DNA of 53,280 nt from Escherichia coli (lineage in GTDB: Bacteria > Pseudomonadota > Gammaproteobacteria > Enterobacterales > Enterobacteriaceae), in assembly GCF_003334355.1 (NCBI RefSeq), contig NZ_QOWP01000028.1, one strand, 5' to 3'. Below, piece by piece: positions 2,424-8,700 of this stretch; position 1 is the stretch's first letter, and each line of letters starts with the position of its first letter. A program made the translations under genes and the position numbers. The notes beneath the pieces are model-generated. The model made no database searches, was not told where the DNA came from, and was given only the letters and a program-made list of their open reading frames with translations.

Positions 2424-3398
2424 TTAGTCCGCGACGTGCGGATTCACACAGTTCTTCTCAACCTTTCCTTGTAACGCATCAATCAAATTATCCACGGCAC
2501 AGGCGGCCATGCCATAACGCGTCTCATGGGTGGCAGATCCAATATGCGGTACTGCGACGACGTTGGCCATTGAGAGCAACGGCGAATCTACGGACAGTGG
2601 CTCTTGTTCGAAGACATCCAGCCCGGCAGCGTGAATTTCGCCTTTCTGCAATGCTGCGATCAGTGCATTTTCGTCAACCACCGGGCCACGTCCGGCATTA
2701 ATGAAAATGGCGGAGGATTTCATTTTGGCGAATTGTTCTGCGCCAAACAGATGATGCGTCTCATCAGTTAACGGCAGGATCAGGCAAACGAAATCTGACT
2801 CTTGTAACAGAGTATCCAAATCGCAGTAGCGGGCGTTGAAGCGTTCTTCTGCTTCTTTATGGTGGCGGCGCGCGTTATAGAGGATGGGCATGTTGAAGCC
2901 AAAGTGCGCACGTTGTGCCAGCGCCATGCCGATCCGTCCCATCCCGACAATGCCCAGTGTTTTATGGTGAACGTCAGTGCCGTACCAGTCCGGGCCTATG
3001 CTCGCGGTCCATTCGCCTGCTTTTACCCGTTCTGCTACCTCCACAACCCGACGAGCGGTAGACAACACCAGCGCCATCAGCGTATCGGCGACGGTTTCTG
3101 TTAATACGGTTGGCGTGTGCATCAGCAGAATTTTTCGGGCGGTAAGCGCATCGACATCAAAATTGTCATAGCCGACGGAGATCGTTGATGTGGCACGCAG
3201 TTTCGGCATTTTTTCCAGCAATGCGGCATCAACATTCTCGTTTGAACCCAGTAAACCTTCAGCTTCGGCAAAAATTGCTGCATTTTGTTCGACGGTTTGT
3301 GGGCTGAGGTTTGCCACCTGGTGAACGGTGAAATGCTCTTGCAGGCGTTGCAGTAAATCATCAGGTAAGGCTTTGTAGAGGATAACGGACGGCTTCAT
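2424..3398 (-). CDS. ghrB: Glyoxylate/hydroxypyruvate reductase B (2-ketoaldonate reductase; D-isomer 2-hydroxyacid dehydrogenase family)
   Basis: 324-aa product from MKPSVILYK… with NAD-binding motif [16 protein letters not shown] and catalytic His region; start chosen as the third in-frame Met to match the family N-terminus. Confidence 0.93.
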
Positions 3399-3450
3399 GC
3401 TTCTCTCCATTCACTGATAAGGCGATCACCTTAGCCTGAAATATGATGAA

Positions 3451-3491
3451 GGAAAACTGAAGAATGCCAGGTGATTTCTGCATCACCTGGC
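3451..3491 (-). terminator. Putative terminator hairpin downstream of yiaD
   Basis: Perfect 10-bp inverted repeat gccaggtgat/atcacctggc (3466-3491) followed on the minus strand by a U-containing tract. Confidence 0.45.
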
Positions 3492-3501
3492 ATGAAAGGG
3501 A

Positions 3502-4161
3502 TTACAGCGGGCTTAAGGTAATTTCTACACGGCGGTTTTGCGCCTTACCTTCTGCGGTGCTGTTGCTGGCGATTGGGTTAGCCGGGCCAAGGCCCTGAGT
3601 ACGGATGCGGCTGGCGTCCACGCCCTGGGTGATCAACGCGCTGGCAACGGAATCCGCACGCTGCTGGGAGAGACGCATGTTCAGGTCGTGACCCCCCGTG
3701 CTGTCGGTATAACCAATCACGTTAACCGCCGTTTTCGGATACTCTTTCAGCACCATTGCCACGCCGGTCAGGGTGTTAGCGCCTGCCGGTTTCAGGGTCG
3801 CGCTGCTGCTGTCGAAGGTCACATTGTTCGGCATATTGAGGATAATGTTATCCCCGCTGCGGGTTACGCTAACACCAGTGCCGCGCATTTTGTCACGCAG
3901 CTTCGCTTCCTGCACATCCATGTAATAACCCACGCCGCCGCCCAGAGCTGCGCCTGCTGCTGCGCCAATCAGCGCGCCTTTACCGCGATCTTTCTTCGAA
4001 GAAGAGAGCGCACCAATACCCGCGCCCACGAGAGAGCCCAGACCTGCGCCGATAGCAGATTTGCCTGCTTCGCGTTCGCCGGTGTAAGGGTTAGTTGTGC
4101 AGCCAGATACCGCCAGAGCGCCACTCACTACGGCGGCAATAAGATAAACACGTTTCTTCAT
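3502..4161 (-). CDS. yiaD: OmpA-family outer-membrane lipoprotein YiaD
   Basis: 219 aa; lipobox (VSGC), Gly-rich region, C-terminal OmpA-like peptidoglycan-binding domain (…NRRVEITL…). Confidence 0.9.
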   Translation of the reverse strand: MKKRVYLIAAVVSGALAVSGCTTNPYTGEREAGKSAIGAGLGSLVGAGIGALSSSKKDRGKGALIGAAAGAALGGGVGYYMDVQEAKLRDKMRGTGVSVTRSGDNIILNMPNNVTFDSSSATLKPAGANTLTGVAMVLKEYPKTAVNVIGYTDSTGGHDLNMRLSQQRADSVASALITQGVDASRIRTQGLGPANPIASNSTAEGKAQNRRVEITLSPL

Positions 4162-4313: not shown

Positions 4314-6647
4314 TTGGCCAACTCATCCTCACGATATTCCGTTCTGACTGCCGCCCACTGGGGGCCCATGCTGGTTGAAACCGACGGCGAAACCGTGTTT
4401 AGCTCGCGTGGCGCGTTAGCCACAGGAATGGAAAACTCCTTGCAGAGCGCGGTTCGCGACCAGGTTCACAGCAATACGCGGGTACGATTTCCAATGGTGC
4501 GCAAAGGCTTTCTCGCGTCACCGGAAAACCCGCAAGGCATTCGTGGGCAGGATGAATTTGTTCGCGTGAGTTGGGATGAGGCGCTGGATCTTATTCACCA
4601 ACAACATAAACGCATTCGTGAGGCTTATGGTCCGGCATCGATTTTTGCTGGTTCCTACGGCTGGCGTTCAAACGGCGTGCTGCATAAGGCCTCGACATTA
4701 TTACAACGCTATATGGCGCTGGCAGGCGGTTATACCGGGCATCTGGGGGATTATTCGACCGGCGCGGCACAGGCGATCATGCCGTATGTCGTGGGTGGTA
4801 GCGAAGTTTATCAACAGCAGACCAGTTGGCCGCTGGTGCTGGAACATAGCGATGTCGTGGTGCTGTGGAGTGCTAATCCACTCAATACGCTGAAAATTGC
4901 GTGGAATGCATCCGATGAGCAGGGGCTTTCTTACTTTTCTGCACTGCGTGACAGTGGGAAAAAGCTGATCTGCATTGATCCAATGCGATCGGAAACCGTC
5001 GATTTCTTTGGCGATAAAATGGAGTGGGTGGCACCGCACATGGGCACCGATGTTGCGCTGATGCTGGGGATCGCCCATACGCTGGTGGAAAATGGTTGGC
5101 ACGACGAAGCGTTTCTGGCGCGTTGCACCACAGGTTATGCCGTCTTCGCCTCTTATTTGCTGGGCGAGAGTGACGGAATAGCGAAAACCGCCGAATGGGC
5201 AGCAGAGATTTGTGGTGTTGGCGCAGCGAAAATCCGCGAGCTGGCGGCTATTTTCCACCAAAATACCACCATGCTGATGGCAGGCTGGGGAATGCAGCGC
5301 CAACAGTTTGGTGAGCAAAAACACTGGATGATCGTCACGCTGGCAGCAATGTTGGGGCAAATCGGCACACCCGGCGGCGGTTTTGGTCTTTCTTACCATT
5401 TTGCCAATGGTGGTAACCCCACGCGGCGTTCTGCGGTGCTCTCTTCCATGCAGGGCAGCTTGCCGGGTGGCTGCGATGCGGTAGATAAAATCCCTGTGGC
5501 CCGCATTGTTGAAGCACTGGAAAACCCTGGTGGCGCATATCAACACAACGGTATGGACCGACATTTTCCGGATATTCGTTTTATCTGGTGGGCGGGCGGT
5601 GCCAACTTTACTCATCATCAGGATACCAACCGCCTGATCCGTGCCTGGCAAAAACCGGAGCTGGTGGTGATCTCCGAATGTTTCTGGACGGCGGCGGCGA
5701 AACACGCGGATATCGTTCTGCCTGCGACCACCTCGTTTGAGCGTAATGATCTCACCATGACCGGCGATTACAGTAATCAGCATCTGGTGCCCATGAAGCA
5801 AGTGGTGCCGCCACGCTATGAAGCGCGTAATGATTTTGATGTTTTTGCCGAGTTAAGTGAACGCTGGGAGAAGGGCGGTTATGCACGTTTTACGGAAGGA
5901 AAAAGTGAGCTGCAATGGCTGGAAACGTTTTATAACGTTGCCCGACAGCGCGGGGCAAGCCAGCAGGTTGAATTGCCGCCATTTGCTGAGTTCTGGCAAG
6001 CCAACCAGTTAATTGAGATGCCGGAAAACCCGGACAGCGAGCGGTTTATTCGCTTCGCTGATTTTTGCCGCGATCCGCAGGCGCATCCATTAAAAACCGC
6101 CAGCGGTAAGATTGAAATCTTCTCGCAGCGTATTGCCGATTACGCTTATCCGGATTGCCCGGGGCATCCAATGTGGCTGGAGCCGGACGAATGGCAGGGC
6201 AATGCCGAACCAGAACAGTTGCAGGTACTTTCTGCCCATCCGGCGCACCGCCTGCACAGCCAGCTGAATTACAGTTCTCTGCGCGAATTGTACGCGGTAG
6301 CAAACCGTGAGCCTGTCACCATTCATCCTGACGATGCTCAGGCGCGCGGCATAACCGAAGGGGATATGGTGCGGGTGTGGAACTCCCGTGGGCAGATCCT
6401 TGCCGGAGCGGTCATTAGCGAGGGAATTAAACCTGGCGTGATTTGCATTCACGAAGGGGCATGGCCGGATCTGGATTTAACCGCTGACGGTATTTGTAAA
6501 AACGGCGCAGTGAACGTGCTGACCAAAGATCTCCCCAGCTCGCGGCTGGGGAATGGCTGTGCGGGTAATACGGCGCTGGCATGGCTGGAAAAATACAACG
6601 GTCCGGAACTGACACTTACAGCGTTTGAACCACCGGCCAGCTCATAA
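4314..6647 (+). CDS. bisC: Biotin sulfoxide reductase (molybdopterin oxidoreductase, cytoplasmic)
   Basis: 777-aa product of the DMSO reductase family with no signal peptide; TTG start at 4314 preceded by AGGAG (4301-4305). Confidence 0.93.
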
Positions 6648-7773: not shown

Positions 7774-8472
7774 ATGATCATAAAAAAAAGCGGTGGTCGC
7801 TGGCAGCTAAGCCTGCTGGCGAGCGTGGTAATCAGTGCCTTTTTTCTCAACACAGCTTACGCCTGGCAACAAGAATATATCGTTGATACGCAACCCGGAC
7901 TTTCCACAGAGCGTTACACCTGGGATAGTGATCATCAACCTGATTACAACGATATTTTGTCGCAACGTATTCAAAGTAGCCAAAGGGCGCTGGGACTGGA
8001 AGTCAATCTGGCGGAAGAAACCCCTGTGGATGTGACCAGCAGTATGAGTATGGGCTGGAATTTTCCTTTATATGAACAGGTTACAACCGGCCCGGTCGCG
8101 GCATTACATTACGATGGCACAACCACCTCGATGTATAACGAGTTTGGCGACAGTACTACCACGCTGACCGATCCGTTATGGCATGCCAGCGTGAGTACCT
8201 TAGGCTGGCGTGTTGACTCCCGGCTTGGCGATCTCCGACCCTGGGCGCAAATCAGCTATAACCAGCAATTTGGCGAGAATATCTGGAAGGCGCAATCAGG
8301 CCTGAGCCGGATGACGGCGACAAACCAGAACGGCAACTGGCTGGATGTCACCGTAGGCGCTGATATGTTGCTCAATCAAAATATTGCCGCCTATGCCGCG
8401 CTAACTCAGGCAGAAAATACCACTAATAATAGCGACTATCTGTATACGATGGGGGTTAGCGCCAGATTTTAA
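7774..8472 (+). CDS. yhjY: Small outer-membrane beta-barrel protein YhjY (autotransporter beta-domain-like)
   Basis: 232 aa; signal peptide ending AYA, alternating hydrophobic beta-strand pattern, C-terminal Phe (…GVSARF). Confidence 0.85.
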   Translation: MIIKKSGGRWQLSLLASVVISAFFLNTAYAWQQEYIVDTQPGLSTERYTWDSDHQPDYNDILSQRIQSSQRALGLEVNLAEETPVDVTSSMSMGWNFPLYEQVTTGPVAALHYDGTTTSMYNEFGDSTTTLTDPLWHASVSTLGWRVDSRLGDLRPWAQISYNQQFGENIWKAQSGLSRMTATNQNGNWLDVTVGADMLLNQNIAAYAALTQAENTTNNSDYLYTMGVSARF

Positions 8473-8586
8473 CGTAACAGTCACAATTGAAACCATTAAA
8501 TAACAATAGTTGTGGCGATAGTGGGTGCTAACTTACCAAATAATAAATTTGGTGAATAATTGTCGCGTCATTCATTCCTGAACTAA

Positions 8587-8617
8587 GGCATTTCATTCCG
8601 TTCTGATGGCATTTCAT
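8587..8617 (+). promoter_or_regulatory. YpdB (LytTR response regulator) binding site in the yhjX promoter
   Basis: Two exact copies of GGCATTTCAT (8587-8596 and 8608-8617) separated by an 11-bp spacer, about 85 bp upstream of the yhjX ATG; matches the published YpdB motif. Confidence 0.65.
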
Positions 8618-8700
8618 GCCGTTTTTCCCCAGGCATAAAGTGCACTTCGTTATGGTTGTCGGCAGAGATTTTTCCTTTTTATTACTGCAGGAATACTGCC

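Follow-up and report, generated by a model that had tools for sequence, protein, structure and literature searches.

The closest described counterpart of the element analyzed here is the yhjX promoter of Escherichia coli K-12, in which two direct repeats are bound by YpdB, the regulator of the pyruvate-sensing YpdA/YpdB system that has since been renamed PyrS/PyrR. In the binding study the repeats are named site A and site B (PMC4847170, citing Fried, Behr and Jung 2013). An oligonucleotide designated 'yhjX YpdB bs' was used in SPR with purified YpdB and YpdB-D53E (Behr 2016, PMC4847170). Site A was described as the high-affinity site that is occupied first (KD ~1.2 nM for YpdB-D53E, with slow on and off rates) and site B as ~10-fold weaker and filled after site A (KD ~21 nM for YpdB-D53E, with fast on and off rates); mutation of site A resulted in no binding at site B (PMC4847170). 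In the 'AB-BA' model of the same study the molecule bound at site B is proposed to recruit RNA polymerase, and release from B and then from A leads to pulsed expression (PMC4847170). Expression of yhjX was up 678-fold with 3 mM pyruvate (PMC7660256). In K-12 the induction of yhjX is credited to YpdA/YpdB (PyrSR), with a threshold of ~600 µM pyruvate or more. The 2013 report by Fried et al. reportedly agrees with these later accounts of the YpdB site at yhjX. Site, regulator, stimulus and binding kinetics are thus already known, having been published 2013-2016, and binding, occupancy order, pyruvate as the stimulus and ypdB dependence are taken here from the literature and not from the present sequence.

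LytTR regulators are described as recognizing two repeats, direct or inverted, that are 9-11 nt long and have spacers of 11-13 nt (PMC4847170). The operators of AgrA, ComE and PlnC/PlnD from Gram-positive LytTR quorum sensing likewise consist of two 9-11-nt direct repeats, 11-13 nt apart, upstream of an activator-dependent promoter, and likewise show cooperative occupancy and DNA bending, but their repeat sequences, peptide signals and regulons are unrelated to the YpdB site. A further related case is the pftAB promoter of Bacillus subtilis, together with the LytSR/LytST-lrgAB systems of Firmicutes, where a pyruvate-responsive LytS/LytTR pair likewise activates a pyruvate-transporter operon via two direct boxes. 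At pftAB (ysbAB) these are two 13-nt LytT boxes, 8 nt apart with a 21-bp period (Charbonnier et al. 2017, PMC5626966), and the authors noted the resemblance of the YpdB site to them (PMC5626966). The target of Firmicute LytST is a LrgAB/PftAB-type transporter adjoining the regulator genes, whereas yhjX encodes an unlinked MFS transporter. Within E. coli, BtsR (YehT) and btsT (yjiY) form a paralogous case, in which a pyruvate-sensing LytS/LytTR pair has one transporter gene as its only target and acts through an operator of direct repeats. The BtsR site is reportedly built from repeats of another sequence, ACC[G/A]CT[C/T]A, with a 13-bp spacer (attributed to Kraxenberger et al. 2012), and no such motif was present at yhjX.

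The stretch of E. coli DNA analyzed here (the window; 53,280 bases) contains the 10-mer GGCATTTCAT at positions 8587-8596 (site A) and 8608-8617 (site B), both on the + strand, as found by direct reading and by pattern search. A third exact copy was not found by pattern search on either strand of the window. The spacer on the + strand at 8597-8607, TCCGTTCTGAT, has 11 bp and gives a start-to-start period of 21 bp; the local context on the + strand reads CTAA GGCATTTCAT TCCGTTCTGAT GGCATTTCAT GCCG. The initial annotation had reported two exact 10-mers with an 11-bp spacer before yhjX, and we confirmed this, with 84 bp between the end of site B and the yhjX ATG at 8701. The pair also fits the repeat and spacer lengths given for LytTR sites. 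The similarity extends beyond the 10-mers, with 15/16 positions equal between 8587-8602 (GGCATTTCATTCCGTT) and 8608-8623 (GGCATTTCATGCCGTT); since the GCCGTT following site B (8618-8623, + strand) matches the TCCGTT following site A, the repeat unit is effectively 16 nt. The same annotation spoke of perfect tandem repeats. The copies are indeed identical in this window, but 'tandem' is a loose term for direct repeats with a spacer between them, and perfect identity is not a conserved requirement, as natural variants show. The pair was missed by a generic repeat search and by Tandem Repeats Finder in the window.

A search for GGCATTTCAT-N11-GGCATTTCAT gave a single match in the window, also when 3 mismatches were allowed, and none in 100 dinucleotide-preserving shuffles (0/100). 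Close repeats as such were not rare: the window held six pairs of exact direct repeats with a length of 10 nt or more and a spacing of 11-40 bp, compared to 1.4 expected under a first-order Markov model, and four of the other five pairs were located in coding sequence. The weight therefore rests on which sequence is repeated, on its spacing, on its place before yhjX and on its conservation. Site B and its flank (8608-8620) form, by inspection, a perfect 5-bp inverted repeat, GGCAT-TTC-ATGCC, and site A with its flank an imperfect one, GGCAT-TTC-ATTCC. This difference between the sites may be linked to the reported difference in affinity and curvature, or may be incidental.

Window positions 8564-8621 were identical in 58/58 nt to the native sequence contained in the 'yhjX YpdB bs' SPR oligonucleotide (PMC4847170), with one match and 0 mismatches. 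The published YpdB binding architecture is thus reproduced as had been proposed, in that repeats, spacer, flanks and downstream gene all match, and there was no difference at the site from sites A and B of the K-12 yhjX promoter. Direct observations of this study are what the sequence of the element is, that it occurs once in the window, where it lies, that it equals the DNA bound in the experiments and that it is conserved. We regard it as nearly certain that the element is the YpdB (PyrR) operator of yhjX, with two cooperative sites and responsiveness to pyruvate, and we see no feature of the sequence that speaks to the contrary. As a discovery this carries little weight, the window reproducing a characterized sequence exactly; its value for annotation is that yhjX of this strain can be assigned to the pyruvate-sensing network. 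Small additions are the variant positions, the fixed spacing, a conserved upstream block, an operator split by IS1 and an identical motif in a Firmicute lytST-lrgAB promoter.

The regulated gene, annotated yhjX in RefSeq E. coli genomes, is encoded on the + strand at 8701-9909 (402 aa). Its upstream neighbour yhjY (7774-8472, + strand) ends 114 bp before site A, and since yhjY is co-oriented with yhjX, the intergenic region that holds the operator (228 bp) has no divergent gene or promoter. The gene order in RefSeq E. coli is bisC, yiaC, tag, yhjY, yhjX, eptB, proK, dppA. Among NCBIfam models, YhjX scored above the curated cut-offs for the oxalate/formate antiport family of the MFS (TIGR00890, 478.5 bits) and for the SfMCT L-lactate MFS transporter (NF049980, 342.1 bits, cut-off 320). 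The RefSeq name 'L-lactate MFS transporter' follows from this equivalog model, which was barely passed, and may claim more for YhjX than has been established.

The region was matched in 5,423/5,426 complete E. coli genomes. Compared with K-12 MG1655 the window showed 99.4-99.6% identity over 50 kb, differing at about 0.4-0.6% of positions, and because this identity is not full the window represents an E. coli strain other than MG1655; the yhjY-yhjX intergenic region was the same as in MG1655 throughout. The 31-mer 8587-8617 was found in 5,387 of the 5,426 complete genomes, counting matches of 100% identity that spanned 94% or more of the query. Nearly all of these genomes had one copy, and none of the copies was located on a plasmid. 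The whole 228-bp intergenic region, in contrast, showed 90-95% identity in 1,231 genomes. A longer 56-mer (8567-8622) was present in exact form, with GGCATTTCAT at site A, in 3,605/5,426 genomes, and with one change, T for G at 8587 giving TGCATTTCAT at site A, in a further 1,627/5,426. Both forms combined account for 96% of E. coli genomes. It follows from the frequency of the TGCATTTCAT form that ~30% of E. coli carry an imperfect pair, with 9/10 positions matching at site A; the perfect repeat is the majority allele and not a fixed feature. Strain DX6 (NZ_CP126345.1) carried an IS1 inside site B (3143-3920 of the extracted locus, equivalent to about 8615 in the window) that had duplicated 9 bp of the target, TGGCATTTC. 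The insertion places site A and a truncated site B ~0.8 kb from the regenerated site B and the core promoter, which makes DX6 a natural operator-split mutant. In several other E. coli strains, insertions of IS1, IS4-like elements or ISVsa5 were seen in or next to yhjY and yhjX.

Conservation beyond E. coli was assessed by a motif scan for GGCATTTCAT-N10-12-GGCATTTCAT in one genome per species, covering 100,044 species. The scan yielded 44 loci, 18 of them enterobacterial and each of these located before a YhjX orthologue. The 18 species belonged to Escherichia (5), Citrobacter (11), Intestinirhabdus and Raoultella, with one match each and a spacer of always 11 bp. The motif was located 70-84 bp before the start of the YhjX orthologue (88-99% identity), the distance in C. 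koseri being inferred because its best YhjX match covered only residues 87-399. One motif per genome in these species fits yhjX as the sole target. Conservation of the 10-mers among the 18 loci is given by construction, since the loci were chosen by the exact motif, and only flanks and positions are independent. Half of the 44 loci (22) were neither enterobacterial nor from Limosilactobacillus; these were repeats within coding sequence, tandem arrays or members of other repeat families, had no gene for LytS/LytT in their vicinity and were set aside as unrelated.

A cross-genus sample independent of the motif consisted of three orthologue proteins at four loci, the homologues listed being almost all from E. 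coli. Among the promoters fetched in this way, that of E. fergusonii had GGCATTTCAT at site A and GGCAGTTCAT at site B, that of a metagenomic relative (89% protein identity) had TGCATTTCAT and GGCAGTTCAT, and that of Scandinavium had TGCAGTTCAT and GGCAGTTCAT, respectively. The 11-bp spacer, the core GCA(T/G)TTCAT and the flanks TCC and GCC were kept in all of them. These alignments suggest (G/T)GCA(T/G)TTCAT-N11-GGCA(T/G)TTCAT as a working consensus, with two positions at which a variant is tolerated, position 1 of site A (T in place of G) and position 5 of site B (G in place of T). In all promoters examined the 21-bp period and 11-bp spacing are the fixed feature, and not the identity of the repeats.

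The remaining four loci of the scan belonged to Limosilactobacillus vaginalis, L. portuensis, L. urinaemulieris and L. avistercoris, in which the identical GGCATTTCAT-N11-GGCATTTCAT was located between lytS-lytT and lrgA-lrgB, ~130 bp upstream of lrgA (at 4427-4457 in one extracted locus). An L-lactate dehydrogenase gene followed lrgA-lrgB in these loci. The Limosilactobacillus LytT was 36% identical to YpdB, and the best NCBIfam match of YpdB was the LytR model, below its cut-off. Unlike the enterobacterial promoters, the Limosilactobacillus motif was not accompanied by the conserved upstream block. Recognition sequence and spacing of the YpdB type are shared across phyla, in agreement with the resemblance noted for LytT and pftAB of B. 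subtilis; the Limosilactobacillus case adds an example to a relationship already described and does not represent a new kind of system.

In the aligned promoters, conserved blocks comprised GTCATTCATTCC at 8567-8578, site A with TCC, CTG in the spacer, and site B with GCC and a T-run. Within the spacer, the first three bases (TCC) and CTG at 8603-8605 were conserved and the rest was variable; the GCC directly after site B was invariant. Further downstream, CTTCG.TAT..T (8645-8656), GCAG (8662-8665) and GCAGGAA (8687-8693) were conserved. The hexamer TATGGT (8651-8656, + strand) is the likely -10 element, because T1, A2, T3 and T6 (TAT..T) were kept in every sequence of this phylogenetic footprint. 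Transcription is accordingly predicted to start near 8662-8665, which would place the centre of site B near -51 and that of site A near -72. With this -10, site B would lie ~10 bp upstream of the -35 position. A recognizable -35 hexamer was not found downstream of site B, and a sigma-70 scan gave no promoter there; lack of a -35 would be expected if the promoter depends on an activator. The scan found neither TATGGT nor the alternative -10 TAAAGT, and returned one consensus-like site at 8533-8560, at chance level. The alternative TAAAGT (8636-8641), which would place site B over the -35, was considered less likely, as it is kept neither in E. fergusonii nor, outside Escherichia and Citrobacter, in Scandinavium, Intestinirhabdus and Raoultella. 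GCAGGAA on the + strand represents the ribosome-binding region, its AGGA ending 8 nt before the ATG. It was kept in Escherichia, Citrobacter and Intestinirhabdus, reduced to AGGA in Raoultella, and missing from Scandinavium and from the metagenomic orthologue of 89% identity, the two most distant of the sample independent of the motif. A CsrA-type hairpin, GCAG-GAAUA-CUGC (8687-8699), that could present GGA over the ribosome-binding site was also considered and set aside; by inspection, several Citrobacter sequences and one from Escherichia cannot form the middle pair. The literature consulted describes control by CsrA for btsT and cstA, and not for yhjX. A 13-nt inverted repeat, 85% complementary, joins DNA 5' of site A (8574-8586) to the ribosome-binding region (8682-8694) 95 nt apart, and is probably due to chance because its upstream arm lies outside the predicted transcript.

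The upstream block GTCATTCATTCC (8567-8578, + strand) precedes site A by exactly one period of 21 bp and agrees with the core GCAKTTCAT at 6/9 positions. It was nearly invariant in Escherichia, Citrobacter, Intestinirhabdus, Raoultella and Scandinavium, and both of its flanks diverged. A relaxed motif gave a second in-register match at 8567-8596 with 3 mismatches, where 0.18 matches are expected in the whole window. The block is a candidate for a third, degenerate half-site. Based on register and conservation we tentatively propose an operator in three parts, with GTCATTCATTCC acting as a third weak YpdB half-site or as an auxiliary contact that helps to load site A, a reading that we consider rather unlikely at present. 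The block lies within the SPR oligonucleotide but was left unmutated in that study (PMC4847170). If true, a three-part operator would extend the published two-site 'AB-BA' model; an influence of the flanks on expression has already been reported, and the idea of a third site may be partly known.

The excess of close 10-mer repeats in the window, six in place of 1.4, would be compatible with the pair having arisen by chance or as a neutral 21-bp duplication without a regulatory role. We regard this as extremely improbable, given that the 31-mer is kept in 99.3% of E. coli genomes, against variation of up to ~6% in the intergenic DNA around it, that the position of the motif before yhjX is fixed in 18 species, and that SPR binding and mutagenesis have been published for the identical sequence (PMC4847170). 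Direct binding of the repeats by the paralogue BtsR (YehT) instead of YpdB is conceivable in so far as the two proteins are close paralogues (YpdB scored 150 bits on the NCBIfam model of BtsR) and the BtsSR and YpdAB systems affect each other's targets. However, the BtsR-type motif in its reported form gave, at up to 3 mismatches, only chance-level matches in the window and none in 8400-8700. PyjiY DNA moreover served as the specificity control for YpdB in SPR (PMC4847170), and a role for BtsR at these repeats is very unlikely.

A different matter is which kinase acts on YpdB. The initial annotation had described yhjX as wired to YpdA/YpdB, with that system encoded elsewhere. The latter was corroborated: a tblastn search of the window with the YpdA and YpdB proteins of K-12 detected no ypdA/ypdB and returned only noise (E-values 1.2 or higher), and in MG1655 pyrS/pyrR (= ypdA/ypdB) at 2,498,671-2,501,117 are located ~1.21 Mb from yhjX at 3,710,799-3,712,007. 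A candidate autoregulatory YpdB site at pyrS-pyrR of K-12, a single match with 3 mismatches inside the pyrS CDS, was dismissed as chance since such a match also occurred in 8/200 shuffles. The wiring is supported, with qualifications. The known YpdB site is present, but the sequence reveals a site and not its wiring, which is taken from published experiments, and the kinase can be BtsS. In uropathogenic UTI89, induction of yhjX was attributed to the non-cognate pair BtsS-YpdB (PMC9765748), so that the site reports phosphorylated YpdB and not necessarily YpdA. The site may accordingly be a YpdB operator whose input is not, or not only, YpdA, with the high-affinity pyruvate sensor BtsS phosphorylating YpdB. 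In favour of this, UTI89 mutated in both btsS and ypdB showed no PyhjX activity (PMC9765748, citing Steiner et al. 2018 for cross-regulation) and an interconnected BtsSR/YpdAB network has been described (PMC5552118, PMC5431176). Studies in K-12, however, credit YpdA/YpdB (PyrSR) at pyruvate concentrations of at least 600 µM, a double mutant leaves the contributions of kinase and regulator mixed, and sequence cannot tell the kinases apart. We consider an input from BtsS a serious possibility for this strain, if not the one we favour. The kinase question refines the YpdA/YpdB wiring and leaves the identity of the DNA element, as the YpdB operator of yhjX, unchanged.

Taken together with the published work, the YpdB operator would function as follows. 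At high extracellular pyruvate, a LytS-type kinase (YpdA/PyrS, or BtsS in uropathogenic strains) would phosphorylate YpdB, and one activated YpdB would bind tightly to site A. A second YpdB would then bind cooperatively to site B, 21 bp downstream, and since 21 bp correspond to two helical turns both molecules should face the same side of the helix. Of the two, the YpdB nearer to the core promoter, whose -35 region is weak, would recruit RNA polymerase to it, leading to transcription of yhjX, and fast release from site B followed by site A would result in the pulse-like output of the published 'AB-BA' model. To this scheme we add, as our own inference, where the -10 element lies, where transcription starts and that 8567-8578 may be a third weak site.

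Further differences between the window and other genomes were seen outside of the yhjX promoter. The interval from proK to the naRNA4/REP region (12074-12181) differed in length by ~46 bases from that of MG1655. Compared with strain 720632, the window had ~98 extra bases in bcsG, at about 21245-21332, this gene being frameshifted in 720632, and it was without the IS1 that is found next to bcsQ in 720632. Rfam matches above the gathering score in the window were all known features of this E. coli region: the cspA thermoregulator (392-819, - strand), tRNA-Pro (proK; 12016-12089, + strand), naRNA4 (12186-12265, - strand), the ES036 sRNA (14501-14543, - strand) and the rdlD antitoxin RNA (20339-20404, - strand). 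The sole other intergenic close 10-mer repeat of the window was an exact pair of GTAACTATTT at 48503 and 48519, 16 bp apart (48503-48528). According to the annotation of strain 720632 it is located between rcdB and yhjB, two regulator genes in divergent orientation, and it could represent a transcription-factor site.
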